Source: a virus
Length of the DNA: 43,985 nt
IMG/VR virus record: IMGVR_UViG_3300045988_075559
Strand: one strand, 5' to 3'
This document shows positions 1 to 38,604 of this stretch, piece after piece. The stretch's first letter is position 1. Every line of letters begins with the position of its first letter. Under the pieces are notes generated by a model, which was not told where the DNA came from, made no database searches, and saw nothing but the letters and a program-made list of their open reading frames with translations. The translations under genes and the position numbers were made by a program.

Positions 1-99
1 ATTTTTTTTGTCTCTTTCTCTGTGGCTTTTGCTTTATCTACGCTGAGTAACTTTTCAATTAAATTCCTATTCTTTCCTCCTATGCATCTATTGTGTTAA
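1..99. repeat. Terminal direct repeat, left copy (identical to 43887-43985)
   Basis: attttttttgtctctttctctgtggc...catctattgtgttaa occurs at both ends. This is most simply a circular-assembly overlap. Confidence 0.95.
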
Positions 100-514
100 G
101 TACTTCGAAGCTGCTGAAGTTAAACGGTATAGATTCCTCAAGCAGCTTACCTGCTTCCCAGTCCGCAAGTGTCAGCTCCGTGAACACGCAGTTATCTAAG
201 CGAATTCTTTCTGCTCCAAATGCTTCTGGATCTTCCAGGTTTGTGATGATCGTTGCTCTTGTTGCTTTTCCTTTTTTTAAATTCTCTGAAATCTTCTTTA
301 TGAAATAAGATGTCACTTTATTCAGCTTCAAGGTTCCAGATCCGCTAATCCCGGTTACCTTATACCCCTTTTCCAGCGTTCCGGTTCTCTTAACTTCTGT
401 CGTGTCAAGCTTCATTTTCGCCTGCAAAGCTGTCGTTTCTGCCATGTAGTCATTGTCTATCCAGCACTCTCCAAAAGTGCCGTTGACAACTCTGTCATCT
501 GTATAATTATTCCT
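80..514 (-). CDS. Tail tube protein (XkdM-like), proposed AGG start
   Basis: The ORF-track Met (445) is internal. The upstream in-frame codons NNYTDDRVVNGTFGECWIDNDY continue an XkdM-type N-terminus. There is no ATG/GTG/TTG in frame back to the sheath stop (527-529). AGG 512-514 lies 7 nt after GGAGG (522-526). Stop is TAG 80-82. Confidence 0.8.
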   Translation of the reverse strand, partial: RNNYTDDRVVNGTFGECWIDNDYMAETTALQAKMKLDTTEVKRTGTLEKGYKVTGISGSGTLKLNKVTSYFIKKISENLKKGKATRATIITNLEDPEAFGAERIRLDNCVFTELTLADWEAGKLLEESIPFNFSSFEVLNTIDA

Positions 515-526
515 TTTGTTTCCTCC

Positions 527-1606
527 TTACACAGCAATCTCCAGATTAATGTCTTCCATTACGTCCACGATCGTCACGTATGCCTTCAGAAAAACTTTAT
601 TATCGGTATACTGCTTTTTGATTTCCTCCTCTGACATTGCTTCTGCTTCGTCTCTGGAGACCTCCTTGTTTTCGATGATATATTCTTTTATCGCTTCTGT
701 ATCCAAGCCAATTTCATAGTCCTGTATCAGCCCGTTTCTTTCCAACTCTTTCAAGTAAGAATTGATCGCTGATATCAGGAGGCATTTGTTACTGTATGTG
801 TTTGGATACTTTCCGATATAGTTATCCTCGGCCAGCAGCACCAAATCGTCGTGGATCATATCCATTGTCTCTACAACACGGATTTTTTTCCACGAATCAG
901 CTTTTCCTTTCTGAACTGTCGTCAGAGAGTTGACGCCTTTTGCTACTTTTACTTTTTCTCCATCGTAGAACACAACAAATTTTCCTGAATCCACAGCAGT
1001 ATCCAGTGCATCTTTATCCAGTTTTTCACATGCGCTTACTTCTTCCAACACGGCAAATGTAGATGATATTTTATACGATGTTCCCGCAAGAAGTCCGGCG
1101 ATCCTGGAACAGAACGCCTCTGGCGTATATTTCTTATTGTTTACAATCACTTCGCTCGTTGCATAATTTATAATGCCTTCATTGTCCGCCGTATTATCAG
1201 GCAGAATTGCCTTTACCCTGTTCCTATTGCCATCTCTCTGCTCTTTTACCCATGTCAGGACGCTTTCTTCCTGTCCATCAGTCTTTACAGTCGGACAGCA
1301 CAGCCATGTTACTTTTTTGATTTCAAAGTATTCTAAAGCCTTGCTGTAATTTTCTTCTATTTTTTCAAGGACATATACAACTACCTTTCTTGGAGTTGTG
1401 TCATTTCCTTTCAGCGCAAATTTGATCTGTTCTTTGCTTTCTTCACTAAATGCTTCCGGGATATCTTTTTCACTGTAAATAACAGTCGGGTTTGCGGTTG
1501 GTACCGTTGTTTCTTTTATGATCATTCCAACCGTTCCACGTTCAGCTCGTCTTATTGTTTTTCTCGCCGCTGCCACAAAGACAACGTTCATTGTTGGTAA
1601 GCCCCT
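527..1606 (-). CDS. Contractile tail sheath protein (XkdK-like), proposed AGG start
   Basis: Sheath-like 354-aa ORF directly upstream of the tube gene. AGG 1604-1606 is 9 nt after GGAGG (1616-1620), overlaps the upstream stop TAG (1605-1607), and adds GLPT before the ORF-track Met (1591), which has no SD. Confidence 0.8.
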   Translation of the reverse strand, partial: RGLPTMNVVFVAAARKTIRRAERGTVGMIIKETTVPTANPTVIYSEKDIPEAFSEESKEQIKFALKGNDTTPRKVVVYVLEKIEENYSKALEYFEIKKVTWLCCPTVKTDGQEESVLTWVKEQRDGNRNRVKAILPDNTADNEGIINYATSEVIVNNKKYTPEAFCSRIAGLLAGTSYKISSTFAVLEEVSACEKLDKDALDTAVDSGKFVVFYDGEKVKVAKGVNSLTTVQKGKADSWKKIRVVETMDMIHDDLVLLAEDNYIGKYPNTYSNKCLLISAINSYLKELERNGLIQDYEIGLDTEAIKEYIIENKEVSRDEAEAMSEEEIKKQYTDNKVFLKAYVTIVDVMEDINLEIAV

Positions 1607-2039
1607 AGTCTTTTACCTCCTGTCCAAGCATAAGTATTTTCATTGTTTCAACATTTTCCTGTCTTTCAATCCGGTCCCAGAACTCTATGTCGAATCTACA
1701 CATTGGTACATTTGCATTTTCTCCCTGGAAGGTTAATTCCATGTCGCTTGTGTTTAAGCTTCTGCTGCCTACTGTCAGTTTCTGCCCGAACATTTCTTCC
1801 ATTATGGCGAAAAAATCTGTTCCATCTGCCTCGTTTGCCGCTTTTTGTATGTAATAGATTTCAGCCTCTACATTCTTATGTCTGGCATTTTTTGTTGATT
1901 CTAAAAAGGTCTGTGTTATATATACAAAAAAAGAAGGTCTGGTATAGCCTTCTATTGTATCGGCGCCATAGATTTTGTATTCCGGATATCTTTCTTTTAA
2001 AGCGGAATTGACCGCTTTCTTTATTTCTTTAAGAGTCAA
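1605..2039 (-). CDS. Head-tail joining / tail completion protein (family not recognised)
   Basis: TTG start 6 nt after AGGAGG; 144 aa. It occupies the slot between the gp10-like gene and the sheath. Confidence 0.6.
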   Translation of the reverse strand: MTLKEIKKAVNSALKERYPEYKIYGADTIEGYTRPSFFVYITQTFLESTKNARHKNVEAEIYYIQKAANEADGTDFFAIMEEMFGQKLTVGSRSLNTSDMELTFQGENANVPMCRFDIEFWDRIERQENVETMKILMLGQEVKD

Positions 2040-3147: not shown

Positions 3148-4302
3148 TCATACTCCTGTAACAGTTGCATCTTTAATTGTCAGCTGCCCGTTCACGAACG
3201 CTTCTTCGTCTTTCACCGTGCAGTCTTCCCTTTCGATTGCCCTGAAGATTGTAAGATCTTCTTCAAATGCATTCAGTTCTCCGATCTGGGCGATGTTAGA
3301 TGTCATAAGAGTCATCTGGTTTCTATCCCAGAATTTGATACCCTCTTTCAAATCTCCGATAATAACTGGTATCTTTCTACTTCCTGCTGTCTTTGTATCG
3401 GATGGCATATCGGAGTTTGGAATAACTTTGACAGGAACAATTGTTGATCCAGCGCAAAGTCTAAGCTGCATTGGATTTGCAGGATCCGGCTGGAGAAGAT
3501 ATCTTCCTTCGTTATCCTTTAATGTATCAAGCCACTGTAACCCATCGTCGTTTGTCACAATTGCAGAAGTAGGTTTAAATGCCTGTCCAAGCGTGATATT
3601 CAATGCTTTCTTGATATCATCAAGATCTTTCATTGCTGTTACATCCTTTGTCGCAATCTGCTCAAGAATCATTTTATTTCTTGTGACTCTTGACTCATCC
3701 GCAATCCATGTTGTCAAAGCTCCCGTAATATTTGCATCTGTATCCGCAAGAAGTTCATTTGTGCAAGGAAAATATCCTGCATATTTTTCAATCTCGTATG
3801 AGATTCTTTCGAACTGCGGGGTTGTTCCAGCTGTTATCTTTCCACCTTCTCCCACTTTCGCAAACCCAGTCTGCTGCGCACGTTTCTTATAGGTTCTCTG
3901 GCCTTTGTTTGTTGTTACATTTTCTACATCAACCAGGCTGATCAGAGAGAATTTTGCGCCTCTGTATGTATTGATCTGTGTCTGGATGTCTTCCGGGACT
4001 GTATATCCTCCATCTGCAGGTGTGCCTTCTACCATAGTTGCGTTTCGGAATCCTCTTCTTGCAGCATTAGCAAATTCTTTGATAGAGTTATTTTCTAACG
4101 GTTTCGGTTCCTGTGATGGATTGGCTGTTCCATCTCCGTCTGGATCCATGATGTCTTTCAGAAGGTCAAACTGTTCCTGCATATCTTTAAGTTCTTCCTT
4201 GGCTGTTCTTGCTTCTTCCAGCTTTCCCTGCTCTACCAGGGACTGTACCATTGTTTTTTTCTCATTAATAGAGTTTAAAAGTTCTAATAATTTTTTATTC
4301 CT
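3148..4302 (-). CDS. Major capsid protein (HK97 fold type), proposed AGG start
   Basis: Capsid-like 367-aa ORF downstream of the protease. AGG 4300-4302 is 5 nt after GGAGG (4308-4312) and adds NKKLLELLNSINEKKT, a coiled-coil N-terminus. No ATG/GTG/TTG lies in frame before 4251, and that ATG lacks an SD. Confidence 0.85.
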   Translation of the reverse strand, partial: RNKKLLELLNSINEKKTMVQSLVEQGKLEEARTAKEELKDMQEQFDLLKDIMDPDGDGTANPSQEPKPLENNSIKEFANAARRGFRNATMVEGTPADGGYTVPEDIQTQINTYRGAKFSLISLVDVENVTTNKGQRTYKKRAQQTGFAKVGEGGKITAGTTPQFERISYEIEKYAGYFPCTNELLADTDANITGALTTWIADESRVTRNKMILEQIATKDVTAMKDLDDIKKALNITLGQAFKPTSAIVTNDDGLQWLDTLKDNEGRYLLQPDPANPMQLRLCAGSTIVPVKVIPNSDMPSDTKTAGSRKIPVIIGDLKEGIKFWDRNQMTLMTSNIAQIGELNAFEEDLTIFRAIEREDCTVKDEEAFVNGQLTIKDATVTGV

Positions 4303-4319: not shown

Positions 4320-4982
4320 TCAGATACCATACTGATCTAAGTCTCTTAATATTTCTTTTTTCTGCTGTTCTTTTGCTTCCTGGGCTTCTTTTTCCTGTTT
4401 TACTTTATTGCGTATTTCATCCGTCAGTCTGACTCCGCACACGCAATTAAAGAACTGCTGCCCTGAATTCTCGATCTTATCAATAAATCCAAGTTCAAGA
4501 GCCTTCTCTGCTGTGATCCATGTTTCCTTATCCATCATTTTCAGGATTTCATCTTTTGATCTTCCTGTTTTTTTTGCATACGCTTCCGAAAGCGCACTGT
4601 TCATTGTTTTCAGGATTTCTGCGTTCTTCTGCATATCATGATAATCTCCGGAAGCTCCTGACATTGAGACATTGTGGATCATTATAGTCGCAACAGGGCT
4701 CATTTTGCATGTGTTTGCCATTGCAATCACACTGGCTGCACTACCAGCAAGCGATTGAATGTTGATTTCCACGTCACTTCTTCCGGCAAGAATAGAATAG
4801 ATTTCCTGTCCTGCCATCACAGAGCCGCCGCCTGAGTTTATGTTTACCGTGAGTGTTTCTCCTGGTTGAAGAGAGGCAATTGCATTCCTGATATCATTCG
4901 GACATGTGGAATCCCAGTCCAGCCAGTCGTAAATCCATTTATCATCATTGCTGATGATATCCCCTCTTACATCAATCTCCAT
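4320..4982 (-). CDS. ClpP-family (S14) prohead maturation protease
   Basis: ATG 4980-4982 is 8 nt after GGAGG. Motifs: ...NINSGGGSVMAG...LAGSAASVIA...IMIHN. Confidence 0.85.
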   Translation of the reverse strand: MEIDVRGDIISNDDKWIYDWLDWDSTCPNDIRNAIASLQPGETLTVNINSGGGSVMAGQEIYSILAGRSDVEINIQSLAGSAASVIAMANTCKMSPVATIMIHNVSMSGASGDYHDMQKNAEILKTMNSALSEAYAKKTGRSKDEILKMMDKETWITAEKALELGFIDKIENSGQQFFNCVCGVRLTDEIRNKVKQEKEAQEAKEQQKKEILRDLDQYGI

Positions 4983-6252
4983 CTCCTTCACCTCCCTGTG
5001 TGTTAACTCCGTAAGCCGCGCCTATATGTGTTATTGGCTGATACGTTCCGTTTACCATGTTGACATCTCCTCCGTCCACGAAAGGAAGATCAAGGAGATC
5101 TCTCCCCTCATTGATCGTATAGATTCCGTTCTGCACGTATCCAGTTATTACTTCCTTCTGTGTCTTTGAATCCGTTCTCAATAATGCTTTTTCGTTGAAT
5201 TTAAAATAATATCCTTCTTTTTTCTCAGTATCAGAAAGACATTTATAGTTTATCTCCTGCTCGTACTGTGACAATCTATAGCTCATCGTGTCCACCAGGA
5301 ATGCCAACTGCTGGCTTTCAGAATTTGAATAGCTTGACTTATCATAATCGTTTAGCTGATTTGGTTTAATTCCGAATGCTGCTGCAATCTGCAATGCCGT
5401 ATATTTTTTTATCTCTGCATACTGCGCATCTGCCAGAGTTACGTTTAGTGGCTGCAGTGTCATACCAACTGGTACCGCCACCACTTTACCTGCGTTTTTA
5501 GCGCCTGAAAGTAATGCGTTGTATTCCTTTTGCAAGGCCATACGCTTTGGTTTATCAAGGTCTCCTGTATACTGCAACGCTGCCTTTGCGGTTAATCCGC
5601 TAGCATACAGCTGATTCAAGTATTTCTGTGACTCCACTGCGCCCGAAATTGAATCCTGTAAGATCTGCCTTACCGGTTTTCCCATGATTCCATTAAGTGT
5701 GCACCATGTTTTAAAGTGCATAACATTATCCTGTGAAAAAGTGTATGTCTTTCCGGTCTTAGGATCGCTGTATCGATAATACAGCCTTCCTGCGTCTCCG
5801 AACACTCCCACATCATCCATTAGCACATCCACATAATTGCTCTGCATAGGCCAGAATGAAAGAATGTTGTATTCTCCTCCATATCTTCCCTTTTTCTCGA
5901 ATTTCGTCTGTATCCATACATACGCATTTCCATAATGTTCACAATTATATTCTATCGTGCCCCAGAACGTCGCCGGAGTCATGATCTGATTTGGTCTGTT
6001 CATAAGGAGCCATGAAGCTCTCGTCGGATCTGCCCGTATTTTTCCCTTATCGGTCTGCTTATAAAATTTCAGTGGCATTTTCCCCATTGTTTCTGAAAGC
6101 ATTTTTAAGCATGTAAAATACGTTACTTCTCCAATTGCATTTCGTGGGGTTTTTGGATCAATTCCAAGCCACTCCATTAGCCTTTCATCATCTATTGATG
6201 TAGGCTCTCCAACAAGGGAATTCCACATTTCTTTAATTTTCTGTAGAATCCT
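4972..6252 (-). CDS. Portal protein (HK97 family), proposed AGG start
   Basis: Portal-like 418-aa ORF after TerL. AGG 6250-6252 is 7 nt after GAGGAG (6260-6265) and adds ILQKIKE. The ORF-track ATG 6226-6228 has no SD. Confidence 0.8.
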   Translation of the reverse strand, partial: RILQKIKEMWNSLVGEPTSIDDERLMEWLGIDPKTPRNAIGEVTYFTCLKMLSETMGKMPLKFYKQTDKGKIRADPTRASWLLMNRPNQIMTPATFWGTIEYNCEHYGNAYVWIQTKFEKKGRYGGEYNILSFWPMQSNYVDVLMDDVGVFGDAGRLYYRYSDPKTGKTYTFSQDNVMHFKTWCTLNGIMGKPVRQILQDSISGAVESQKYLNQLYASGLTAKAALQYTGDLDKPKRMALQKEYNALLSGAKNAGKVVAVPVGMTLQPLNVTLADAQYAEIKKYTALQIAAAFGIKPNQLNDYDKSSYSNSESQQLAFLVDTMSYRLSQYEQEINYKCLSDTEKKEGYYFKFNEKALLRTDSKTQKEVITGYVQNGIYTINEGRDLLDLPFVDGGDVNMVNGTYQPITHIGAAYGVNTQGGEGDGD

Positions 6253-7996
6253 TCAATATCTCCTCAATAAAATTATCAATGTAATCTCCGTAATCGTCTC
6301 CGAATGCATGAAACATTGCCAGCTTATACGCACATAGTGTTGCATCCACCGGGTCGATTCTCTTTGTTGTTGCATCTTTATCAATTTTGATCAATCCATT
6401 GTTCTGCCGGATTACCGCATTACTCATCGCATAATTCAGCAGAGGATTGTAAGTATATATAATATTTCTGCAAAATACCTGCTCTCTGAATCCCTGTGTT
6501 GCTTCGTTTAAATGTTTGTGGCTCTGAAATACTTCTTCGACATCGTATCCTTCATCTGACAGATCCATCATTAATTTACTTGCATTTGCAGGGTCAAAGC
6601 ACAGGCATTGTATTTTTAATTTCATTTTTTCGCAGGTCTCAAGAACATATCTCATAACTGCTCCCTGATCTACGATCGGAGTGTTTGTTACCTCCAGAAA
6701 TCCCATACGTTCCCACGCGTCATAGGCAACCTTGTCTTTTATAATATGTTCCTGAAGCTTCTCCCTTGTCGGGATAAAACTGTGTGACCAAAGAATATAC
6801 TTTACTATTTCTTTTCTATTCGCATCATATTCCCCGGATAAAAATGGAATCATAAACGCCACTGATGTAAGATCTGTCTTTGCGGACATATCGAAACCTA
6901 CATACACCGGATGTCCCGTTATATCAAATGGTAATTCATTCACCTGGCAGGCTTTCCATTTCGACATGTCCATATACCCATTCTCTTTCGCCTGCACCCA
7001 GACATCCAGACATTTTGTGAGGAAGGCCGTCATATGTTCTGGCTGTTCTCTGGCAATCTTATATTCACCGCGAATCTTATCGACACCTTCCGGATATGTC
7101 ATTCTAATCGGATTAGCTTTCTTCCAAGTCTCTTCGTTATCCAGATTTGAAATGTCTTCATAATCTTCCGGGTCCATCTCACAAATGTCGATTAGATATT
7201 CATCATTCTCCACGTCCGTGTTTGGATCCAACACCTTGGAACAATACTGATACTCAGTCACATAACAAGGATAAGTTAAATCCATTCCAGCTGTTGTTAT
7301 GATCATCAAGAGCGGCTCTTTTGTGTTTGATCCTATTCCTAAATCATAGAACTCCGTGGTTTTGTGCTGATGATACTCATCCAAAACCAGAAGTGCAGGG
7401 TTTGTACCATCCCCGGACTTTCCATCGTCTTTTGATAATGGTTTGATTGTGCTATTGCTTTTCAGATGTTTTATACAGTCCCTGGTTACCTTAAATTTCA
7501 TCCTCAAAGGTGATCCTTGAAGCATTAATCCGGCTTCCCCGAATACAATCTTGGACTGATCGCGTTTTGTGCCGGCGGTATAAATCTCGTATACTTCTCC
7601 GTTCTTGGTTGATGTAACTGCTGCCTCATAGAGTGCAATACCTGCCTCTTCCTGAGATTTCGCATTCTTTCTAGCCACTTCTGTGAAATATTTCTTAAAA
7701 CGTCGATATCCGGTATCTTTATGCACCCATCCGTACAGCTGGCAGATTCTAAATCTCTGCCATGGTGTTAGAATGATCGGTTGCTTTGCCAGAACTCCTT
7801 TACTATGTCGTAAGAGCGCAAACCATTCTACAATGTTCTCTGCCTGTCTTTCATTCCACACATACGGGAAATCCAATTGACCGATTCGGTCAATATCTTT
7901 CAACAATCTTTTGCAGGCCCATATGTGTTTCCTGCCGCTGATAATCTTTCCAGAGATACAATCTAATGCGTATTGTTTTAATTCATCAAGGATCAT
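6233..7996 (-). CDS. terL: Terminase large subunit
   Basis: 587 aa with ATPase and nuclease halves. The ATG overlaps the TerS stop (ATGA coupling). Confidence 0.9.
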   Translation of the reverse strand: MILDELKQYALDCISGKIISGRKHIWACKRLLKDIDRIGQLDFPYVWNERQAENIVEWFALLRHSKGVLAKQPIILTPWQRFRICQLYGWVHKDTGYRRFKKYFTEVARKNAKSQEEAGIALYEAAVTSTKNGEVYEIYTAGTKRDQSKIVFGEAGLMLQGSPLRMKFKVTRDCIKHLKSNSTIKPLSKDDGKSGDGTNPALLVLDEYHQHKTTEFYDLGIGSNTKEPLLMIITTAGMDLTYPCYVTEYQYCSKVLDPNTDVENDEYLIDICEMDPEDYEDISNLDNEETWKKANPIRMTYPEGVDKIRGEYKIAREQPEHMTAFLTKCLDVWVQAKENGYMDMSKWKACQVNELPFDITGHPVYVGFDMSAKTDLTSVAFMIPFLSGEYDANRKEIVKYILWSHSFIPTREKLQEHIIKDKVAYDAWERMGFLEVTNTPIVDQGAVMRYVLETCEKMKLKIQCLCFDPANASKLMMDLSDEGYDVEEVFQSHKHLNEATQGFREQVFCRNIIYTYNPLLNYAMSNAVIRQNNGLIKIDKDATTKRIDPVDATLCAYKLAMFHAFGDDYGDYIDNFIEEILKDSTEN

Positions 7997-8502
7997 ATTG
8001 CACCAAACCGGTTTTCAATTTCTTTCTGCTGCTTATTCACTTTTGCCGTGCCGGCTTTCAGTCTCGAATCAATTGTCAATCCACACAAGGCAGCAAAGCG
8101 TCGCATTTCTTCCGCATATCCTTTCTGAATGTCTACCATCGGATTCTTTACGACAATTACTCCGGTTCTGGTTTCTCTGTCAACATAATATGTCTGCTGA
8201 CTTAATATTTCTGTGGCTTTTACATAGTTTGCGAACGCATTACAATAGCCTCCGATATTATTCCTGTCCAGGTTTCCGACTATATTTAGTTTATCCAACT
8301 CTTTTATGATCCTGCGCCATTCTTTTTTTGCCACATCATCTATCAGCCATGTCGGAGGACGTTTGAGCTGGTTTTTCTCTGTTCTTACCTGGTCTTCTGC
8401 GTCTGCTTTCTTTTGTCCTTCTACTATTGTCAGGTGCTTTTTCTGCAAGCTGACTGGTTTCATTGGTCTTGCCCTTGTCCTCCCTCCTCTCTGGCCTGCC
8501 AA
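7993..8502 (-). CDS. terS: Terminase small subunit (P27 family)
   Basis: TTG 8500-8502 gives MAGQRGGRTRARP, the usual family N-terminus. ATG 8542-8544 is an alternative. Neither has a clear SD. Confidence 0.65.
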   Translation of the reverse strand: MAGQRGGRTRARPMKPVSLQKKHLTIVEGQKKADAEDQVRTEKNQLKRPPTWLIDDVAKKEWRRIIKELDKLNIVGNLDRNNIGGYCNAFANYVKATEILSQQTYYVDRETRTGVIVVKNPMVDIQKGYAEEMRRFAALCGLTIDSRLKAGTAKVNKQQKEIENRFGAI

Positions 8503-9001: not shown

Positions 9002-9072
9002 TAGCGGGAGACGGATTCGAACCGCCATTCCAGGCTAAGGAGGCCTGTAAGTTTCCGTTACTTTATCCCGCG
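9002..9072 (-). tRNA. Initiator-like tRNA with anticodon CCU (decodes AGG)
   Basis: 71-nt cloverleaf with acceptor CGCGGGA/UCCCGCU and C1 opposite U72. D stem AAGU/ACUU (A11:U24); anticodon arm CAGGC-CUCCUUA-GCCUG; T arm GGCGG-UUCGAAU-CCGUC; A73. No encoded CCA. Confidence 0.75.
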
Positions 9073-9079: not shown

Positions 9080-9153
9080 TGGACATTCTGAGATTTGAAC
9101 TCAGGACCGTCCGGTTATGAGCCGGATGCTCTGACCAGCTGAGCTAAATGTCC
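9080..9153 (-). tRNA. tRNA with anticodon CAU, elongator type (Met or Ile2)
   Basis: 74-nt canonical cloverleaf: GGACAUU/AAUGUCC (G1:C72 paired), D arm GCUC-AGCUGGUCA-GAGC, anticodon arm UCCGG-CUCAUAA-CCGGA, T arm CUGAG-UUCAAAU-CUCAG. Confidence 0.85.
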
Positions 9154-9160
9154 GTAGCGT

Positions 9161-9195
9161 AGGAGCCACCTGCTCATAAAGAACAGATGGCTCCT
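9161..9195. other. Long hairpin (15-bp stem, 5-nt loop) between the tRNA-like element and the tRNAs
   Basis: aggagccacctgctc / ataaa / gaacagatggctcct, with 13 Watson-Crick pairs and 2 wobble or mismatch positions. No flanking U tract. Confidence 0.6.
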
Positions 9196-9202
9196 ATGTC
9201 AA
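9173..9202 (-). promoter_or_regulatory. Putative sigma-70 promoter reading into the two tRNAs
   Basis: Minus strand TTGACA (9202-9197), N18, TATGAG (9178-9173). It overlaps the hairpin, and tRNA-CAU starts about 20 nt downstream. Confidence 0.3.
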
Positions 9203-9235
9203 GGAAAATCAATATGAGTCTGGTGTTAAACCGGA

Positions 9236-9303
9236 GCAGAACATCAGGATTCGAACCTGCGGCTCCATGGCTCACGCTCGCTCCTATTTGGCGAGATGTT
9301 CTG
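9236..9303 (-). other. Degenerate tRNA-like element (acceptor, D and T arms; no anticodon arm)
   Basis: CAGAACA/UGUUCUG acceptor, UCGC...GCGA D arm and GCAGG-UUCGAAU-CCUGA T arm. Only 17 nt (G CGUGAGCCAUGGAGCC) sit where about 23 nt of anticodon arm plus variable loop should be, and they do not pair. Confidence 0.4.
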
Positions 9304-9380
9304 GTAGTCTGCCAAGTGGGTACTGGCAGACAACTAAGGGAAGGAGAACTCTGTATGATCTTCCACTGAGTTCAGTTTAT

Positions 9381-9425
9381 ACTATAACATTTTGAATCGG
9401 GACATTTGGGACATTCGGGACAAAC
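9381..9425 (-). promoter_or_regulatory. Putative late promoter: three tandem 9-bp repeats plus extended -10
   Basis: Minus strand GTTTGTCCC GAATGTCCC AAATGTCCC (9425-9399), then GATTCAAAA, then TGTTATAGT (TGn-TATAGT, 9389-9381). It sits directly after the putative activator gene and upstream of the tRNA cluster. Confidence 0.4.
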
Positions 9426-9426
9426 T

Positions 9427-9849
9427 TTAATTTTCTTTAAAAAATCTTTGAAATTCTTTTTTTACGCTCTCTTCTGTGGCTTTTCTTCCCATCTTTCCAG
9501 CTACCTGCTGCCACGTCAGTTCTTCAAACACCTTGTATTTTATGATTCTCTGCATTCTTGGAGGAATTGTGTTTAGCCACCCTTCTACTTTTGTCTTTAG
9601 CTGCTCTGCCTGTTTTCTTCTCTCTTCCAGTACCTTCTGTCGATAGCGCAGTTGGCTGTCGTCCTTAATAGAAAATGTTGTTCCCTGCACCTTGAAATGT
9701 TTTGGGTTATAAGGAAATTCGGGGTTGCTTCCAGACACGTTTGTCTGTATCACTGTCTTTTTCTTTCTGTTAAGCTTTTTAATCTCCTGTTCCGTTTCCC
9801 TGATCAGTTCGCAGGCATCTACGTATTGATTCAAAATATTCTTATCCAT
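9427..9849 (-). CDS. Putative late-gene transcriptional activator (sigma region-4 / ArpU-RinA-like HTH)
   Basis: ATG is 8 nt after GGGGAG. The C-terminal ...LTWQQVAGKMGRKATEESVKKEF resembles a sigma-r4-type HTH. It sits just upstream of the packaging genes. Confidence 0.4.
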   Translation of the reverse strand: MDKNILNQYVDACELIRETEQEIKKLNRKKKTVIQTNVSGSNPEFPYNPKHFKVQGTTFSIKDDSQLRYRQKVLEERRKQAEQLKTKVEGWLNTIPPRMQRIIKYKVFEELTWQQVAGKMGRKATEESVKKEFQRFFKEN

Positions 9850-18464: not shown

Positions 18465-18800
18465 TTATTTATTCTTGAATTCTTTGTATAATTCTCTTCC
18501 TGCTGCTTCGGTCATATTGCCGCTAATCATCTCTGACTTAGTCGTATATCTTAATCCGCTTAACAGTGCTTCTGCCGCTTGTGCTGCTTCTGGAATATCT
18601 TTCTTTATTCCTTCTGCGACTATGCTTAATGCAGCTATGACAAAAACTATGTCTCCCGCTGGAACAAATCCTACGATTTCCTGCAGTTCATTTACCCATA
18701 CCTTGGTGCGTTCTGTAGAAAGCTTTAAAAGTTCTATACCTTTTGCATTCATCAACTTTTTCTCAAATTCTTTGTAGCCATTAAAATCTGTTCTTAACAT
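18465..18800 (-). CDS. Hypothetical protein (111 aa)
   Basis: ATG 18798-18800 is 8 nt after AAGGAG. Confidence 0.55.
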   Translation of the reverse strand: MLRTDFNGYKEFEKKLMNAKGIELLKLSTERTKVWVNELQEIVGFVPAGDIVFVIAALSIVAEGIKKDIPEAAQAAEALLSGLRYTTKSEMISGNMTEAAGRELYKEFKNK

Positions 18801-18868
18801 TTCATTTTCTCCTTGATTTTTCGTTGGTTTTGTTTTATACTTTTTGTAAATCAAATTATTTTCTTTTT

Positions 18869-19069
18869 TTATAAGCCTCTCATGTTTGCAGACGTGAGGG
18901 CTTTTTTAATTACTTTTCTCTTCTCCTGCAGCCAGATCAGGATCACCAGGCACGTGATACTCAGCACTATTGTTCCGGCAAAGAGTTCTAATCTTGTGTT
19001 CCAGTCCCAGATCGGGAGCATGGCGGTTATGTATCCGATCAGCAGAGATATGATCATCTTGCGTTCCAA
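18869..19069 (-). CDS. Small membrane protein (66 aa, two hydrophobic segments)
   Basis: TTG is 8 nt after GGGAGG. Hydrophobic segments IISLLIGYITAML and LFAGTIVLSITCLVILIWL. Confidence 0.5.
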   Translation of the reverse strand: MERKMIISLLIGYITAMLPIWDWNTRLELFAGTIVLSITCLVILIWLQEKRKVIKKALTSANMRGL

Positions 19070-19117
19070 TTTTCTCGCCTCCCTTCATTTATGTATGCTT
19101 GTCCTACTGTCTCCGCC

Positions 19118-19285
19118 TTATTCGGCGGTTTTTCTTTCGTAATTCTTTCTTTGGTAATATCCGATTATAATCTTCGAAACATTATCTATAATTCTCTGAT
19201 TATCTTCCTTTGTGTTATTTTTACAGTAGTCGTCGTGGATTCGGATTAAGCCGGATCCGTATTTGATTTCTTTAATCACTGCCAT
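19118..19285 (-). CDS. Small hypothetical protein (55 aa, below the ORF-track cutoff)
   Basis: ATG 19283-19285 is 7 nt after GAGGTG. Sequence MAVIKEIKYGSGLIRIHDDYCKNNTKEDNQRIIDNVSKIIIGYYQRKNYERKTAE. Confidence 0.45.
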   Translation of the reverse strand: MAVIKEIKYGSGLIRIHDDYCKNNTKEDNQRIIDNVSKIIIGYYQRKNYERKTAE

Positions 19286-19350
19286 ATGTAATCACCTCTC
19301 TTGGATTATGTTATGTTGTGTGGTTGTACAGGGTTCCTTCCCTGCTCAAG

Positions 19351-19545
19351 TCACTTTTCTTCCCATTCCGCAAAATAATCCATACTTACATCAAAGTACT
19401 TTGCGACCTTTAAAATATTTTCAAATGTCGGAGATGCTTCGTTCCATTTGCCGATAGTCCCATTCCCGATATTTAACTTCTTCTCCAGCGAAGCAATTGA
19501 GATTCCCTCTTCTGCTGCCAGGCGCTTGATTTTTTCATAAATCAT
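19351..19545 (-). CDS. XRE-family HTH regulator (Cro-like, 64 aa)
   Basis: HTH ...ISIASLEKKLNIGNGTIGKWN.... The palindrome tcataga-N6-tctatga (19561-19580) abuts its SD. Confidence 0.75.
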   Translation of the reverse strand: MIYEKIKRLAAEEGISIASLEKKLNIGNGTIGKWNEASPTFENILKVAKYFDVSMDYFAEWEEK

Positions 19546-19879
19546 TTTTTTCTTCCTCTTCTCATAGACTTAAATCTATGAAAGTGTTATTATTGAATTG
19601 TTACTTTAGGTTTTAGTCTAATTTGGTACATAACCAGAAAGGAGTTGCCAAGGGGTAACAACTCAGGGACGCTTCCCAAGATGGGAGGTGTGGTTAAGGG
19701 ATTCTGTAAAAGATATCCTCGAATGTATCTTTCTTGTCCTGCAGATTATTTATCTAATCGACAAGTTTGATATGTAAAACCATTTTGCAGTGCTTTCGGC
19801 ACTCAGTTGGAAGCACTGTGAAATCCATTTTCACACCTCACGCATCTATTCCCAGACATTTCTGTCATTCCCACCCTTT

Positions 19880-20047
19880 TTATCCGGCTTTCTTCTGTTC
19901 TGCGCCTGCCAGAGCGATAACTGTATTCATACAGCCATCCAGGTAACCTTTCTGTCTCTCTGTAAGGCAGTCCCAGATTGCATTCATTTCTTCCATCTGC
20001 TGCCATCTCTGTTTTACTTTTTCTTCTGTAAGGATTTCTTTCATCAT
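19880..20047 (-). CDS. Small early protein (55 aa, below the ORF-track cutoff)
   Basis: ATG 20045-20047 follows GAGGTGAAACACA. It is the first gene downstream of the consensus early promoter. Sequence MMKEILTEEKVKQRWQQMEEMNAIWDCLTERQKGYLDGCMNTVIALAGAEQKKAG. Confidence 0.5.
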   Translation of the reverse strand: MMKEILTEEKVKQRWQQMEEMNAIWDCLTERQKGYLDGCMNTVIALAGAEQKKAG

Positions 20048-20082
20048 TGTGTTTCACCTCGCTTTCTGTTGTCTATGGTCAC

Positions 20083-20111
20083 ATTATATATTCCTATGGT
20101 AACTTTGTCAA
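20083..20111 (-). promoter_or_regulatory. Early (lytic-direction) sigma-70 promoter
   Basis: Minus strand TTGACA (20111-20106), N17, TATAAT (20088-20083), a perfect consensus. It is overlapped by the ATGGTMAC repeats at 20073-82 and 20094-103. Confidence 0.6.
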
Positions 20112-20143
20112 TAACTTTTTGTTTCCTTTGGTAACTTTTTGTA

Positions 20144-20172
20144 TTGACTTTATTTAATATAGGTGTTATTCT
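20144..20172 (+). promoter_or_regulatory. Putative repressor-gene promoter
   Basis: TTGACT (20144-20149), N17, TATTCT (20167-20172), 30 nt upstream of the CI-like start. Confidence 0.35.
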
Positions 20173-20202
20173 TTGATTAAAGAATTGCAAGGAGGTGAGC
20201 TA

Positions 20203-20577
20203 ATGACACAGGGTGAACGTGTAAAATCCGTCCGCGATAAAAAGCAGATGACAATGGAACAATTCGGGGAAAAGCTTGGTGTTACCAAAACAGCTATTTC
20301 TCGAATTGAAAAAGGTGATCGAAGTCTTACAGAACAAATGCTCAAGTCAATTTGTCGTGAGTTTAGTGTGAACGAGGACTGGTTGCGGACCGGAGCTGGT
20401 GGCCCTGAGAATATGTTTATTCCGGAAGATATGCGGTACCTTAACACCGTCGGCAGACTGGGAAACGAGCAGAACGAATTCAAAAAGTTCTGTATTAATA
20501 TGCTGATGGAGCTTCCGGACAAATACTGGGATTACATTTATGAAGAATTCAAGAAATTTGAGAAAAAAGAAGAGTAG
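20203..20577 (+). CDS. CI-like repressor (XRE HTH plus C-terminal domain)
   Basis: ATG 20203 is 7 nt after AAGGAGG. HTH MTMEQFGEKLGVTKTAISRIEKGDRSLT. It is divergent from the early promoter. Confidence 0.75.
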   Translation: MTQGERVKSVRDKKQMTMEQFGEKLGVTKTAISRIEKGDRSLTEQMLKSICREFSVNEDWLRTGAGGPENMFIPEDMRYLNTVGRLGNEQNEFKKFCINMLMELPDKYWDYIYEEFKKFEKKEE

Positions 20578-31737: not shown

Positions 31738-32478
31738 TTAAAATTTTAATCTGTATTTCAATCGGCTTCTTTTTCTGCTAAAACGCACCTTATCTACGGT
31801 TGGATCAGAATACATTTTGAGTCTGCCCTTTACAACCTTAAAGGCGGCAAAATGGACGTTTCCGGTTTCGCCTTTAAGTTCAGTTTCTTTCTGGTGGACA
31901 TAATTATCAATGTCTTTCTTTCCCTCTTCTACTCTGCCGGGAATAGATGCTGCAACTTTCTGTGCTTCTCCGGCATAGTATTTCGCATTGTCTTCTTTTT
32001 GCTCCGGATAATCTCCTCTTCCGTGTGCCCAGGCCTCTGCCTGGTCTCTGGCTTTTTCTGACCGGTCGGCTGCCTGATTGACTGCCTCGACCGTCTCTCT
32101 GAAAATCTCCGGTTCTTCCGGCGATCCGGGAACCTCCGGTTTTGGTCTTGCTTTTATTGGTATGGTTATTTTATGTTCTGTATTTCCAGAATTATTTTCA
32201 CTCAGGTATATGAATGCGTATATTTTGTAATTTTGGTCGATTTCTTCGTTCTCCAGCATGGAATCCGGAATTGGCACATCTGTTACAGAATCTTTCGTTG
32301 TTCCTATTCTTGTTACAGATGTTCCGCCTGTTTCTTCCAATGAGAAATGTATCTCAATAGCCGGCCGTAGAGTAAGTCCCTGAATTCTTAAAATTTGTCC
32401 ATAATCCCACTGCCACGCTGTTTCGGCCCGAATATTTGTTTCTGCTTCTGAAAAAACAGCAGTGATTATATTATTCCT
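31738..32478 (-). CDS. Fibre-module virion protein (family not recognised), proposed AGG start
   Basis: The frame is open for 46 codons upstream of the ORF-track TTG (32340, no SD). AGG 32476-32478 is 6 nt after GGAGG (32485-32489) and overlaps the rSAM 3' end. Confidence 0.6.
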   Translation of the reverse strand, partial: RNNIITAVFSEAETNIRAETAWQWDYGQILRIQGLTLRPAIEIHFSLEETGGTSVTRIGTTKDSVTDVPIPDSMLENEEIDQNYKIYAFIYLSENNSGNTEHKITIPIKARPKPEVPGSPEEPEIFRETVEAVNQAADRSEKARDQAEAWAHGRGDYPEQKEDNAKYYAGEAQKVAASIPGRVEEGKKDIDNYVHQKETELKGETGNVHFAAFKVVKGRLKMYSDPTVDKVRFSRKRSRLKYRLKF

Positions 32479-34482: not shown

Positions 34483-35142
34483 TCATTTTACCGCAGATGA
34501 AACCTGCCCATAGCATGTATCTTTGCATGTATTTCCGCAATTAGTAGAACAATTTGACGAGCATGAAGTACTGCATCCTCCGCAAATCGTAGAACAGCTA
34601 TTTGAACACGATTCCGCGCATCCTCCCATGCATGAAGATGTACATTCGGATCCGCATGAACTTCCGCATGAGCTGCATCCAGAACAGCCAGTGCATGATG
34701 TCGAACACGATGCTGTGCATCTATTGTCGCATCCAGTACAGTATCCTGAACATGTCCCAGAGCATCCAGAGCAATCGTATGAACAACTGTACCCGCATCC
34801 AGTACATCCATTTTTGCAGCCGCCCGAACAGTCATCTGCGCATGTTGCAAAGCAATTGCCTCCGCATGCATTTGTGCAGTCTGCGCAAGTCTGCGCACAA
34901 TTTGTCGTGCAGGTCTGGAAGCAATCCGTTTTGCAGCCACCCGAACAGTCATCTGCACATGTTGCCTGACAACCCGTACATTCATCCTCACATGCTCTGT
35001 TGCATAGCCTATCACAATTCCCACTGCATCCAGTTTTACAGCTGGTTGAGCATGCGGTTCCGCATGAGCTTCCGCAATTTCCTTTCGTCGTATTTTGACA
35101 ACTTGTCGCGCACTGAGTTCCGCAACTAGATGTACAAGCCCT
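34483..35142 (-). CDS. CXXX-repeat Cys-rich protein (219 codons, 54 Cys), proposed AGG start
   Basis: Absent from the ORF track. This 660-nt open frame, (AGG)ACTSSCGTQCATSCQN...CKDTCYGQVSSAVK, has no N-terminal ATG/GTG/TTG. AGG 35140-35142 is 8 nt after AGGAGG (35151-35156). Stop is TGA 34483-34485. Confidence 0.7.
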   Translation of the reverse strand, partial: RACTSSCGTQCATSCQNTTKGNCGSSCGTACSTSCKTGCSGNCDRLCNRACEDECTGCQATCADDCSGGCKTDCFQTCTTNCAQTCADCTNACGGNCFATCADDCSGGCKNGCTGCGYSCSYDCSGCSGTCSGYCTGCDNRCTASCSTSCTGCSGCSSCGSSCGSECTSSCMGGCAESCSNSCSTICGGCSTSCSSNCSTNCGNTCKDTCYGQVSSAVK

Positions 35143-35163
35143 TTTGTTTTCCTCCTTTTAATT

Positions 35164-35691
35164 TTAAGCTTTTATTGATGTAGTGCATCCCGCGCCGCAT
35201 GTATGTGTGCAGCCGCTCGAACAGCCGCCTGTGCAGCCGCCACAGCCGCCTGAACAGCCATCTGAGCACTGTTTTCCACATGTAGTGCTACAGTTTCCAG
35301 AGCACGAAGCGCACCCCATACAGGCAGATGCACAGGCCAGTTCGCATAGACCTGTGCAATTCCCCCTACACCCCGATACCTTTGCATCTTTCTGTATGTT
35401 CAGCATTTTGTCTGCGAAATTTTCCGCTCTTTCCAAAGTCATTTCAAGAGCAGTTCTTTCTTTTCTCAGACTGTTATCTTGCAGGAAATCATTGATTTCC
35501 AGAAGTGGATCAATAATCTTTTGAATGTGCTCATCTGAAACCTGTTTTCCATTCTGCGGCATGAAATCAAAATCATATTCCTGCGATGCATATTTCTTCA
35601 GTGAACCTCCCATTTGTTCTGCTGTTCTGCTCATCATTGTTTTTTTTACTTTTTCTTTGATCCGTTTCAAAGATTCAGCTGTTATAATCCT
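35164..35691 (-). CDS. Protein with helical N-domain and C-terminal CXXX-repeat tail (17 Cys), proposed AGG start
   Basis: AGG 35689-35691 is 7 nt after AGGAG (35699-35703). The ORF-track TTG 35670 lacks an SD. C-terminus: CRGNCTGLCELACASACMGCASCSGNCSTTCGKQCSDGCSGGCGGCTGGCSSGCTHTCGAGC. Confidence 0.7.
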   Translation of the reverse strand, partial: RIITAESLKRIKEKVKKTMMSRTAEQMGGSLKKYASQEYDFDFMPQNGKQVSDEHIQKIIDPLLEINDFLQDNSLRKERTALEMTLERAENFADKMLNIQKDAKVSGCRGNCTGLCELACASACMGCASCSGNCSTTCGKQCSDGCSGGCGGCTGGCSSGCTHTCGAGCTTSIKA

Positions 35692-36268: not shown

Positions 36269-36803
36269 ATGTTACCTCCTCATTCCGCAGCTGGTAATAT
36301 GTCTTTTCTTTTAGCTGCTTATATGTATAAGGTTTATATTTTTTGTATTGATTGTATCTAAGAGTTATTTCTAGTAGATAATCGAGCGGAACCATCTGTT
36401 CAAACAGATCTTCTACTCCCTTGATCATATACTTACGCGTCACTTCAACCTGACATGATACCTGTTTTTTATCCAGTTCAATGTCCAGTATATAGTTTTC
36501 TCTTCCAAGCACTGCGTCCAGTTTCTGGCGTAGTGTTGTTTCTGTGTATACAGGACTGGACCACCACCTCAGCAGCACTTCCACTTTTCGGTCTTCCAGG
36601 CTAGCGGTATCTAACGGCTGAATTCCGAGGATCTTTTCTCTGCGCTGTATTCCTGATTCTTCAGCTGTTTTGATCGTAATATTACGGTCAATTTCTTCCA
36701 GATAATTTTCAAGAACCCTTCCAACGTTGTCTCCTGCATCAACGCACGCTTTTATCTCTCTTATATCTATTACAACATCCGGGTACTCCACATTTATATG
36801 CAT
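36252..36803 (-). CDS. XkdU-like (DUF2313-type) baseplate/tail protein
   Basis: ATG overlaps the upstream stop. It occupies the position after the baseplate J gene. Confidence 0.55.
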   Translation of the reverse strand: MHINVEYPDVVIDIREIKACVDAGDNVGRVLENYLEEIDRNITIKTAEESGIQRREKILGIQPLDTASLEDRKVEVLLRWWSSPVYTETTLRQKLDAVLGRENYILDIELDKKQVSCQVEVTRKYMIKGVEDLFEQMVPLDYLLEITLRYNQYKKYKPYTYKQLKEKTYYQLRNEEVTFAKNN

Positions 36804-37864
36804 GTGATATCCCCCTTTACCGGCACGGTTCCATCTGTTATCTGTAGATTCTCCGCTTTCCCATTAATTTTAGTGTCTGCCACATCAATGATTCCTTTGA
36901 TATTTACAACTGCTGCCTCAATTTGTAGTATTCTCACAATGATTGTTTCTTTATTTTCCCATTCTTTTCTCAGATTTAGTAAATATTCATCGATAGTCTG
37001 GTTAATATAGCTTTTCAGGGCTTCCGCAGTATATCCGGATTCGCATGTGATTGTTGTCTCTATATTTACGGTAGTTTCTTCTACGCCAGTGATCGTCACC
37101 CTATGCCCGATGGGTGCAAATCCCTCACCTTCTCCGCTGTTTACAATCGGATCAACAGCCGTCTGAGTTGCAGTTATAACATCCTGTGACGGTTTTCTGT
37201 AATCCTGCCCTATGATAGTTATGGCAATTCTGTCCGATGGTGCCTTTACACGTTTCAGCTTGCATCCATATACACCGCTTAATTCTTTTATACGGCTTTT
37301 GTAATATTCCCTATTTCCCGCAAACCCTCTGTAATTATATGTCGCAAGTAATCTCGCGCGATAGCTCTCCGTCTCTTCCTGATCTTTTCCTTCTAATGTA
37401 CACTTAATAATTCTTCCCCATTCAAAATTATCTACGTATCCGATCGGGTCGAGGTCTCCCATTATGTGATTCGGTTCTGCACCCGGGCTATCACAGCCAA
37501 GTCGGTATGTGTGTTCTTTTTCATCAATCACATTGTATACTGTGTAATTGTATTCGTCGAGATTCCAGCGCGATCCAAGTGGTACTTCACAGTTAAATTG
37601 AGCAGTCATTTCTGCATATGTTGCCTGGTTGATATAACATCCTCTGTCGTTTCCATTCCTGATCAAGTGTTCCAGGTCCGCTGTGTCTGCATACATATTC
37701 TGTTCTATTCCAGCAAGCATCAGATAAGCTTCCTCAAGTCTTACCGCCTGTTTTGCGCATGCGTTAAAAATCAAGCTGCCTTCTGATGTATCAATGTCGT
37801 CTGGCATGTCCCTCATCATTGATCGCATGATTGCTTCGTATGTCATTTCTTCAAACCTCTGCAT
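36794..37864 (-). CDS. Baseplate J-like protein (XkdT-like)
   Basis: ...MTYEAIMRSMMRDMPDDIDTSEGSLIFNA... is a J-family N-terminus. The start is ambiguous between ATG 37864, in-frame AGG 37856-58 and ATG 37846. Confidence 0.75.
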   Translation of the reverse strand: MQRFEEMTYEAIMRSMMRDMPDDIDTSEGSLIFNACAKQAVRLEEAYLMLAGIEQNMYADTADLEHLIRNGNDRGCYINQATYAEMTAQFNCEVPLGSRWNLDEYNYTVYNVIDEKEHTYRLGCDSPGAEPNHIMGDLDPIGYVDNFEWGRIIKCTLEGKDQEETESYRARLLATYNYRGFAGNREYYKSRIKELSGVYGCKLKRVKAPSDRIAITIIGQDYRKPSQDVITATQTAVDPIVNSGEGEGFAPIGHRVTITGVEETTVNIETTITCESGYTAEALKSYINQTIDEYLLNLRKEWENKETIIVRILQIEAAVVNIKGIIDVADTKINGKAENLQITDGTVPVKGDITCI

Positions 37865-38258: not shown

Positions 38259-38578
38259 TCTGGCACCACCACCTTTGCTATCACCACATATTTTTCATGT
38301 TTATTAAGTTTTATAAGAAGGACTCTGTCTCCTTCCTGTAGAATATTTTTCTTGTATTCTTCCAGTGTTGCATTATGTGAAGAATCCGTCATATATTCTG
38401 CTGATTGTGGCTTCGAATTATGTATGAATATTTTTTTCTTATTGTCCAATCTTAGATTACAATTTATTAGATAATCATTTTTGTCCAGCGTCATGGTATC
38501 TATTTTAATCTTTCCCGCATCCATCATAATTCCCAGTTGAGGCGGCTGAGCATTGTAATATCGCCCAGCTCTTCTCAT
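38255..38578 (-). CDS. XkdR-like (DUF2577-type) baseplate protein
   Basis: C-terminal ...EGDRVLLIKLNKHEKYVVIAKVV pattern. The start is uncertain. Confidence 0.5.
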   Translation of the reverse strand: MRRAGRYYNAQPPQLGIMMDAGKIKIDTMTLDKNDYLINCNLRLDNKKKIFIHNSKPQSAEYMTDSSHNATLEEYKKNILQEGDRVLLIKLNKHEKYVVIAKVVVPE

Positions 38579-38604
38579 TTGCTCTACGTAACGTTCGTAT
38601 ATGT

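Follow-up and report, generated by a model that had tools for sequence, protein, structure and literature searches.

In this study of a 43,985-nucleotide stretch of viral DNA (IMG/VR record IMGVR_UViG_3300045988_075559, referred to here as the window), we find that twelve late genes, those of the tail sheath and the tail tube included, carry AGG at the spacing expected of a start codon after a Shine-Dalgarno (SD) sequence and have, on gene-by-gene inspection, no canonical start that bears an SD. The phage also encodes a transfer RNA (tRNA) with the anticodon CCU and the features of an initiator (9002-9072), which probably decodes the AGG starts of these twelve genes. Comparison with relatives suggests, and we consider it likely, that this is a natural form of orthogonal initiation: a family of temperate Lachnospiraceae phages would possess its own CCU initiator and would have changed many virion gene starts from ATG to AGG, AGG acting as a start only together with the phage tRNA and as Arg inside genes. 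The initial annotation of the window had remarked that a poor start codon in two of the most abundant virion proteins would be paradoxical unless a dedicated initiator existed. Such an initiator is supported by the initiator-type tRNA(CCU) and by its exceptionless co-occurrence with AGG starts; it would act in the P site and be formylated. As far as the open-access and bioRxiv literature shows, the system looks like one that has not been described before: no report of a natural initiator tRNA with an anticodon other than CAU, or of AGG starts in phages or bacteria, was found in that literature, a description elsewhere being possible. What it did yield on non-AUG initiators was engineered systems and eukaryotic work on near-cognate codons only.

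The sheath and tube genes lie on the minus strand in the same reading frame, with a TAA between them, and the coordinates that the initial annotation gave for both are all correct. The tube frame reads TAA(529-527) GGA GGA AAC AAA AGG(514-512) AAT AAT TAT ACA GAT GAC AGA GTT GTC AAC GGC ACT TTT GGA GAG TGC TGG ATA GAC AAT GAC TAC ATG(445-443). Its AGG is located 7 nt past GGAGG (526-522) and the stretch before ATG 445 holds no in-frame ATG, GTG or TTG, both as had been reported; ATT, ATA, ATC and CTG are absent from it too. The sheath frame reads TAA(1615-1613) AAG ACT AGG(1606-1604) GGC TTA CCA ACA ATG(1591-1589). Here again the earlier description agrees with the sequence, AGG being 9 nt past GGAGG (1620-1616) and overlapping by 2 bases the TAG (1607-1605) of the upstream gene. 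ATG 445 of the tube has no SD, and ATG 1591 of the sheath was rightly described as lacking one of the GGAGG type, the sole purine run upstream of it (AGGGG, 1606-1602) being the AGG codon itself. Frameshifting from an out-of-frame ATG at 498-496 was considered and rejected, as this ATG opens an open reading frame (ORF) of 13 codons only.

Homologous proteins place the start of both genes at AGG. The attribution of the tube to the XkdM type, made in the initial annotation, is borne out by a Pfam match to DUF2001 (E = 2e-47; 161 bits over residues 6-139 of the AGG-started tube, above the curated cut-off) and by a 66%-identical homologue named xkdM by NCBI. The sheath matches the Pfam families Phage_sheath_1 and Phage_sheath_1C with 51.8 and 61.6 bits, which is above the curated cut-off as well. 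Counted from AGG 514 to its stop, the tube has 144 residues; among its 120 best listed homologues, about 100 have 142-147. The N-termini of these homologues follow the pattern M-N-N/S-Y-T-P-D/E-R-V-I-N-G-T-F-G-E, compared with (AGG)-N-N-Y-T-D-D-R-V-V-N-G-T-F-G-E in the window, and their Met is aligned with the AGG (MNNYTPDRVINGTFGE…; most of those listed start MNNYTPDRVING). The 23 residues upstream of Met445 match the homologue N-termini residue for residue, and DUF2001 from position 5 onward. In L040, a syntenic relative whose tube is about 85% identical and whose fetched locus contains no such tRNA, ATG, GTG or TTG stands at every start. Its sheath reads TAA and then ATG GGA TTA CCA GTA ATG (MGLPVMNVIF, against (AGG)GLPTMNVVF in the window), and its tube (MNSYTPDRVI) has ATG exactly at the column of the window's AGG. 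The alignment with close homologues, which had been suggested as a check, finds ATG in the same column as AGG for both sheath and tube in L040. AGG occupies the start column, and the homologue N-termini, the DUF2001 alignment from residue 6 and L040 all support the earlier claim that AGG, not the downstream ATG, starts these two genes. The phenomenon holds for sheath and tube, and its scope is wider than was then claimed, with 12 genes in the window and roughly 100 contigs elsewhere.

The closest tube relatives (80-95% identity) are stored in databases as proteins of 108-136 residues or with odd starts, which is what one would predict if gene callers had run into the same lack of a canonical start. 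Public tube entries of the AGG clade (P0002, P0009, P0012, P0033, P0054, P0058, P0077 and others) have wrong N-termini, which take the form of truncations to 108-136 residues, of an ATT or GTG start read as M, or of an upstream extension giving 153 residues; one wrongly started entry is the NCBI 'phage tail tube protein [Blautia massiliensis]'. These wrong N-termini are a systematic mis-annotation caused by AGG starts.

The twelve genes are listed below with the position of AGG, the SD and the distance between the two; the last five belong to the baseplate or fibre region.

7993-8475, minus strand: small terminase subunit (TerS); AGG 8475-8473, SD AGGAGG, 7 nt; Pfam Terminase_4
4972-6252, minus strand: portal; AGG 6252-6250, SD AGGAG, 7 nt; Pfam Phage_portal
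3148-4302, minus strand: HK97-type major capsid protein (MCP); AGG 4302-4300, SD GGAGG, 5 nt; Pfam Phage_capsid
527-1606, minus strand: tail sheath; AGG 1606-1604, SD GGAGG 1620-1616, 9 nt; Pfam Phage_sheath_1, Phage_sheath_1C
80-514, minus strand: XkdM-type tail tube; AGG 514-512, SD GGAGG 526-522, 7 nt; Pfam DUF2001
43550-43954, minus strand: XkdN-like tail assembly chaperone (TAC); AGG 43954-43952, SD AGGAGG, 7 nt; Pfam Phage_TAC_5
41231-43396, minus strand: tape measure; AGG 43396-43394, SD AGGAG, 10 nt; Pfam PhageMin_Tail
38255-38614, minus strand: DUF2577 baseplate-region protein; AGG 38614-38612, SD GGAGG, 9 nt; Pfam DUF2577
36794-37858, minus strand: Baseplate J-like protein (BpJ); probable AGG 37858-37856, SD GGAGGTG, 7 nt
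35164-35691, minus strand: tail-fibre-region protein, function unassigned; AGG 35691-35689, SD AGGAG, 7 nt
34483-35142, minus strand: Cys-rich repeat protein, 219 codons; AGG 35142-35140, SD AAGGAGG, 8 nt
31738-32478, minus strand: 246-codon protein, function unassigned; AGG 32478-32476, SD AAGGAGG, 6 nt

Relatives of several of these genes have a canonical codon where the window has AGG. TerS of L013 has ATG in an identical context (MARPMKPVSL against (AGG)ARPMKPVSL in the window), the major capsid gene of L134 has ATG in the AGG column (MNKKLLELLN against (AGG)NKKLLELLN), and the chaperone gene has ATG in the same context in 87 relatives (MNLIEKLL against (AGG)NLIEKLL). The tape measure of L040 begins MANKTVAAVV, against (AGG)AGKTVAAVV. 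Relatives of the Baseplate J gene, whose ATG 37864 two codons upstream of AGG is too near the SD, show ATG, GTG or TTG precisely in the AGG column (MFEEMTYE against (AGG)FEEMTYE). The DUF2577 gene keeps AGG in 40 relatives, and its orthologue in L040 starts with ATG. The portal gene, whose start overlaps the end of the large terminase gene and whose next in-frame ATG (6228) has no SD, also keeps AGG in 40 relatives, and no ATG-type orthologue of this portal type was present among the relatives compared. TerS might alternatively start at a downstream ATG (8463), which is preceded by a weak SD.

The last three genes of the list are supported in other ways. Gene 35164-35691 keeps AGG in 28 relatives, and its protein gave no Pfam match. 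The Cys-rich gene has zero canonical start codons in frame and was missed by the listing of ATG/GTG/TTG ORFs; standard ORF finders give a shadow frame (34488-35171) in its place. Its protein (RACTSSCGTQCATSC…) has CxxxC-type repeats, and the same Cys motif closes the upstream gene 35164-35691. In gene 31738-32478 the first canonical codon lies 46 codons downstream and has no SD; no homologue of the protein was found in the fetched loci, and the AGG start is here read from its sequence context alone.

The case draws its strength from gene context and from the comparison with relatives, not from a count of the bare motif. GGAGGN{6,10}AGG was observed 13 times in the window against 5.5 ± 2.8 expected, a modest enrichment that 1 of 100 shuffles reached. 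We also counted positions resembling true starts, defined as lying 5-10 nt past a strong SD, at most 30 codons from the upstream in-frame stop and ahead of at least 80 open codons. ATG held 18 such positions in the window and AGG 11, followed by TTG, AAG and GGA (2 each) and by GTG and AGA (1 each). The same census over 38 tRNA-bearing loci and the window gave ATG 176, AGG 77, AGA 29, TTG 22, AAG 22 and GTG 14. An SD core of 5-6 bases was present in 46 of 54 distinct AGG contexts (spacing 7-10 nt), compared with 31 of 66 ATG contexts from the same phages. The base at -1 was A in 35/54 of the AGG contexts, and never C, compared with A in 26/66 of the ATG contexts.

The CCU tRNA accompanies AGG starts well beyond the window. 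Its body was found in 50 IMG/VR and 45 metagenome contigs and also in two bacterial genomes; several of the metagenome contigs carry a human gut label, and some are longer than 100 kb. A scan of bacterial genomes with the exact anticodon arm gave 0 matches, and it was the scan with an acceptor/D-arm pattern that returned the two genomes, a Lachnospiraceae metagenome-assembled genome and the cultured isolate Ruminococcus sp. AF41-9. In the isolate (L126, QUDO01000003.1, human gut), the tRNA belongs to a prophage on a 166 kb scaffold, and the protease and capsid genes of this prophage start with AGG. A match in L044 to the same anticodon arm with any anticodon was rejected; it falls within coding DNA that is rich in GC and does not represent a tRNA.

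The column of residue 1 was projected with L040 proteins onto 84 sequences (80 tube-related loci, L039-L041 and the window). In loci with the tRNA, AGG starts the sheath in 42/42, the tube in 42/42 and the tape measure in 41/41, and neither AGA nor CGN ever occupies the start column. In loci lacking the tRNA, the sheath starts with ATG. Of the 54 loci that extend 9.2 kb or more beyond the tube gene on its upstream side, the 41 that have the tRNA all show AGG starts and the 13 that lack it show none, no locus being mixed. AGG start columns numbered 217 in loci with the tRNA and 0/124 in loci without. No examined locus has the tRNA without AGG starts, or AGG starts without the tRNA. Sub-lineages extend AGG to TerS, the large terminase subunit (TerL), the protease, the capsid, the head-completion protein, Dit and baseplate J. 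In an L047-like sub-lineage (L050, L052, L055, L057, L062, L066 and others), eight late genes have AGG, and both terminase subunits, the prohead protease, the capsid and the head-completion protein are in this set. The spread of AGG varies among otherwise similar phages.

The tRNA itself is the following.

9002-9072, minus strand: tRNA, anticodon CCU, at the head of the late gene block (ARAGORN; Rfam tRNA, 48.8 bits); CCA not encoded

It reads CGCGGGA UA AAGU AACGGAA ACUU A CAGGC CUCCUUA GCCUG GAAU GGCGG UUCGAAU CCGUC UCCCGCU A. The acceptor stem (CGCGGGA/UCCCGCU) and A73 are invariant and include G2:C71 and C3:G70, which are determinants for the formyltransferase (Fmt). Position 1:72 is a C1·U72 mismatch, scored as a non-standard pair by cmscan and invariant in 14/14 variants; the Watson-Crick 1:72 pair of an elongator tRNA-Arg(CCU) is absent. 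The D stem AAGU/ACUU, with A11:U24 (a pair reported in RajBhandary reviews to be initiator-specific), is invariant too, as are G29:C41 and G30:C40 in the 14 variants. The anticodon loop has C32 and A38, and position 37 is U in most variants and A in others. C35 and U36 are present in every variant, and the anticodon is CCU in every copy from about 100 contigs, none having the CAU that characterizes the class of initiator tRNA carrying formylmethionine (tRNA-fMet). The T stem shows compensatory changes across variants (51:63 C:G↔U:A, 50:64 G:C↔A:U), which, together with the invariant stems and anticodon, indicate a tRNA gene under selection.

Canonical tRNA-fMet shares with the phage tRNA the 1:72 mismatch, G2:C71, C3:G70, G4:C69, G5:C68, G6:C67, A73, A11:U24, G29:C41, G30:C40 and C32/A38 (PMC5389676). 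The phage tRNA differs from it in having CCU instead of CAU, U72 instead of A72, C:G or U:G at 31:39 and, in most copies, U37. The sequences of its D-arm, variable loop and T-loop are unrelated to those of canonical tRNA-fMet.

We propose that a strong SD would position the 30S subunit, that the CCU of the phage tRNA would pair with AGG in the P site and start the protein, and that the tRNA would be formylated. A 1:72 mismatch excludes a tRNA from EF-Tu; the phage tRNA would thereby be kept out of elongation, and internal AGG would still be read as Arg via host tRNAs. The determinant recognized by Fmt is the 1:72 mismatch with the 2:71 and 3:70 pairs, and the GC pairs of the anticodon stem license P-site use, G30 of the middle pair being essential (PMC5389676). 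Since G30 is the essential base and a cg/GC/cg stem still sustains E. coli, P-site function of the CCU tRNA is plausible despite its 31:39 pair (PMC5389676). Initiators with mutated anticodons start at matching non-AUG codons (PMC11744186). In E. coli, codons that are not near-cognate reach about 0.01-1% of the initiation seen at AUG (10.1101/063800), a level much too low for capsid, sheath and tube proteins. The U37 of most tRNA variants could also pair with the A that is frequent at -1; other variants have A37. What purpose the system might serve is a matter of speculation. It might provide virion genes with a lock or with a translation channel of their own, it might make structural modules dependent on the tRNA through linkage, or it might give independence from a host initiator tRNA that is open to depletion, cleavage or defence attack.

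Inside genes, AGG behaves as Arg. In tRNA-bearing phages, internal AGG aligns to Arg (60%) and Lys (26%) of L040 orthologues, a profile that is the same as for AGA and CGT, and Met is outside its eight most frequent partners. AGA and AGG stand at about 3:1 inside genes, AGG making up roughly 15-18% of the Arg codons counted. The Arg-like behaviour of internal AGG shows that this is not the AGG→Met sense reassignment of the UBA7642 Bacilli. As to the amino acid carried by the phage tRNA, Met is plausible given that A73, G2:C71 and C3:G70 are shared with the Met-type tRNA(CCU) of those AGG→Met Bacilli and that position 20 is U in 6/14 variants. Arg is plausible too, given the constant C35 and U36 and the A20 of the window copy. 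C35 has been reported as the least critical anticodon base for methionyl-tRNA synthetase (MetRS) (PMC8629427).

Several points weigh against an initiator that serves these genes. The CCU tRNA lacks A35, the MetRS identity base, and its position 20 is A or U, which leaves neither Met nor Arg identity secure. Position 31:39 is C:G or U:G, not G31:C39, and the rule of three G:C pairs is not strictly followed. Most variants have U37, in contrast to the A37 of tRNA-fMet, which forms a base triple with G29:C41 (PMC2528185). The tRNA lies directly upstream of the late genes on the same strand, and a promoter/terminator scan around both tRNAs of the window gave no sigma-70-like promoter and no other informative signal; if the CCU tRNA is co-transcribed with the late genes, a role purely in temporal control is not obvious. 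Finally, the Fisher p-value of the association between tRNA and AGG (9e-13) overstates independence, because the tRNA-bearing genomes are largely one broad clade. This caveat is partly offset by an ATG/AGG polymorphism within the clade, found in near-identical contexts in at least 7 gene families, for instance TerS (…ggaggacaATGgcaagacca versus …ggaggacaAGGgcaagacca) and also MCP, BpJ and TAC.

Other explanations of the AGG starts have to be considered. One position separates AGG from AUG, the SDs at AGG starts are unusually strong and many of these starts are coupled to an upstream stop; the host fMet-tRNA(CAU) might therefore read AGG inefficiently with a mismatch in the middle, the phage tRNA(CCU) being an Arg elongator. 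Codon supply is the usual explanation of phage tRNAs, and the window copy has the Arg identity elements A20, C35 and U36. We nevertheless regard this as unlikely. Initiation at the low rate given above is implausible for capsid, sheath and tube, and it would leave unexplained the exclusive use of AGG in the start column, where neither AGA/CGN nor any other weak codon is seen. Moreover, an elongator should pair at 1:72, whereas this tRNA combines an invariant C1·U72 with Fmt determinants and A11:U24. AGG, to judge by its share of the Arg codons counted, is not rare inside genes, and relatives without the tRNA have zero AGG starts. It is far less likely that the first downstream canonical codons (ATG 445, ATG 1591) are the true starts, with an untranslated upstream stretch and an incidental SD and AGG. 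Such starts were picked by gene callers, as the 108-136-residue tube proteins of the closest relatives in databases show, and the sheath would lose five residues only. Against this stand the conservation of the 23 residues before Met445 with homologues and DUF2001, the GGAGG at 7-9 nt from AGG where ATG 445 and ATG 1591 have no SD, the Cys-rich gene 34483-35142 that has no canonical start at all, and the ATG of relatives precisely in the AGG column.

AGG could also be a Met sense codon in the code of host and phage, as in the UBA7642 Bacilli clade. Gut Bacilli do have this reassignment, together with a tRNA(CCU) that bears A73, G2:C71 and C3:G70, and phages adapted to the AGG→Met code have been reported (PMC8629427). 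The alignment of internal AGG with Arg and Lys, with Met outside the top eight, and the indicated hosts, which are Lachnospiraceae and not the recoded clade, make it highly improbable here. The least credible explanation, which we would give almost no weight, is an artefact of sequencing or assembly (ATG misread as AGG) or a programmed read-through at the sheath TAA, which would fuse sheath and tube. It is true that the tube and sheath frames coincide and that one T->G change makes each case. However, the same AGG columns recur in dozens of independent assemblies from different samples and collections, the cultured isolate included, and the change affects start columns only and goes with the presence of the tRNA. 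As for read-through, every other AGG gene lies in a different frame from the gene upstream of it and possesses an SD of its own.

The dedicated initiator that we favour can be compared with several known systems. Stop-codon recoding with suppressor tRNAs has reportedly been described in crAss-like and Lak phages by Ivanova in 2014 and Borges in 2022. As here, a phage tRNA alters the reading of one codon, the effect is concentrated in late and structural genes, and translation of the virion proteins needs the tRNA. That recoding, however, acts at elongation on stops inside genes, whereas the AGG system would act at initiation and leave the sense codon unchanged inside genes. The late genes of the window are open in the standard code and its tRNAs carry CAU and CCU anticodons only (ARAGORN), and the combination of in-frame stops in late genes with a suppressor tRNA, typical of stop-codon recoding, is absent from it. 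In the UBA7642 Bacilli, a tRNA(CCU) with A73, G2:C71 and C3:G70 and without A20 was inferred to be charged with Met despite C35 (PMC8629427), which makes a Met-accepting CCU tRNA plausible. That tRNA is an elongator and AGG is read as Met genome-wide, in contrast to the phages, in which internal AGG is Arg and the tRNA has initiator features.

The closest parallel comes from engineered initiators with anticodon mutations (amber tRNA-fMet(CUA) and other non-AUG versions), used for orthogonal initiation and phage biocontainment, in which an initiator body with a changed anticodon is matched by a complementary codon after the SD (PMC11744186; 10.1101/2024.07.29.605542; 10.1101/2021.05.25.445580). 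Formylation and P-site determinants are kept in them, and a change of anticodon can also alter which amino acid is carried (PMC11744186). We found no CCU/AGG pair among engineered initiators in the literature examined. These initiators are laboratory constructs derived from E. coli metY, whereas the phage tRNA is natural, encoded by the phage and evolved together with many AGG-start genes. Its body is also unlike the metY constructs, with a short D-loop, a 4-nt variable loop, C1·U72, C31:G39 and U37. Ordinary phage elongator tRNAs, which serve codon supply or the evasion of anticodon nucleases (PMC10264068), resemble the present case in forming a small tRNA cluster, and the neighbouring tRNA with anticodon CAU may be one of them. 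They are paired at 1:72 and have no tie to a particular start codon, in both of which the CCU tRNA differs.

Initiation by a tRNA with a CAU anticodon at AUG and its near-cognates is among the most conserved rules of translation. To our knowledge, natural exceptions to AUG initiation rely on wobble with this same CAU initiator. If the present reading is true, the phages would represent the first natural start-codon reassignment by a dedicated non-CAU initiator tRNA, and thus a new flexibility of the genetic code, at initiation instead of elongation or termination, and a natural version of engineered orthogonal initiation. On the practical side, gene callers systematically truncate, shift or miss genes in the tRNA-bearing phages (a tube of 108-136 instead of 144 residues, an uncalled gene of 219 codons), and the resulting errors in gut virome annotation and protein families could be fixed by allowing AGG starts where the CCU tRNA is present. 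The system also raises questions about the control of virion genes and about how phages cope with host defences directed against the initiator tRNA or formylation. The prophage of the cultured isolate Ruminococcus sp. AF41-9 makes it testable and offers a possible experimental system.

The window is the complete circular genome, about 43.9 kb long, of a temperate, myovirus-like gut phage with a host among the Lachnospiraceae (Blautia/Ruminococcus-type). Its ends overlap exactly over 99 bp (positions 1-99 and 43887-43985), hence the contig is circular with 43,886 bp and the chaperone start is seen twice, at 68-66 and 43954-43952. Pfam scans covered 30 window proteins, 10 structural ones included, with about 25 small ORFs outside the scans. 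They identified a serine recombinase, a helix-turn-helix repressor and ParA, which indicate a temperate phage, and found no formyltransferase, aminoacyl-tRNA synthetase or initiation-factor-like protein among these 30. The early, lysogeny and lysis genes of the window use canonical ATG, GTG or TTG starts. A megablast of the structural module against INPHARED gave a 42-bp match only, thus no annotated close relative is found among INPHARED phages. In L039, a related Blautia massiliensis contig, a diversity-generating retroelement (bAvd and reverse transcriptase) follows the baseplate genes at 18513-20206; the window genes scanned contain no equivalent.

The second tRNA of the window is a neighbour of the first, likewise at the head of the late gene block.

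9080-9153, minus strand: tRNA, anticodon CAU, with a G1:C72 pair

Owing to this pair it is taken as elongator-type (Met or lysidine-type Ile2). In most relatives it is conserved on the 5' side of the CCU tRNA, at a distance of 7 to about 700 nt. No Rfam match was obtained at a permissive threshold for the intergenic region 9140-9460. On the minus strand, the intergenic stretch 9153-9430 contains two hairpins, at about 9170-9200 and 9300-9330, and a segment that resembles the T-arm and 3' half of a tRNA (gccgcaggttcgaatcctgatgttctgctcc).

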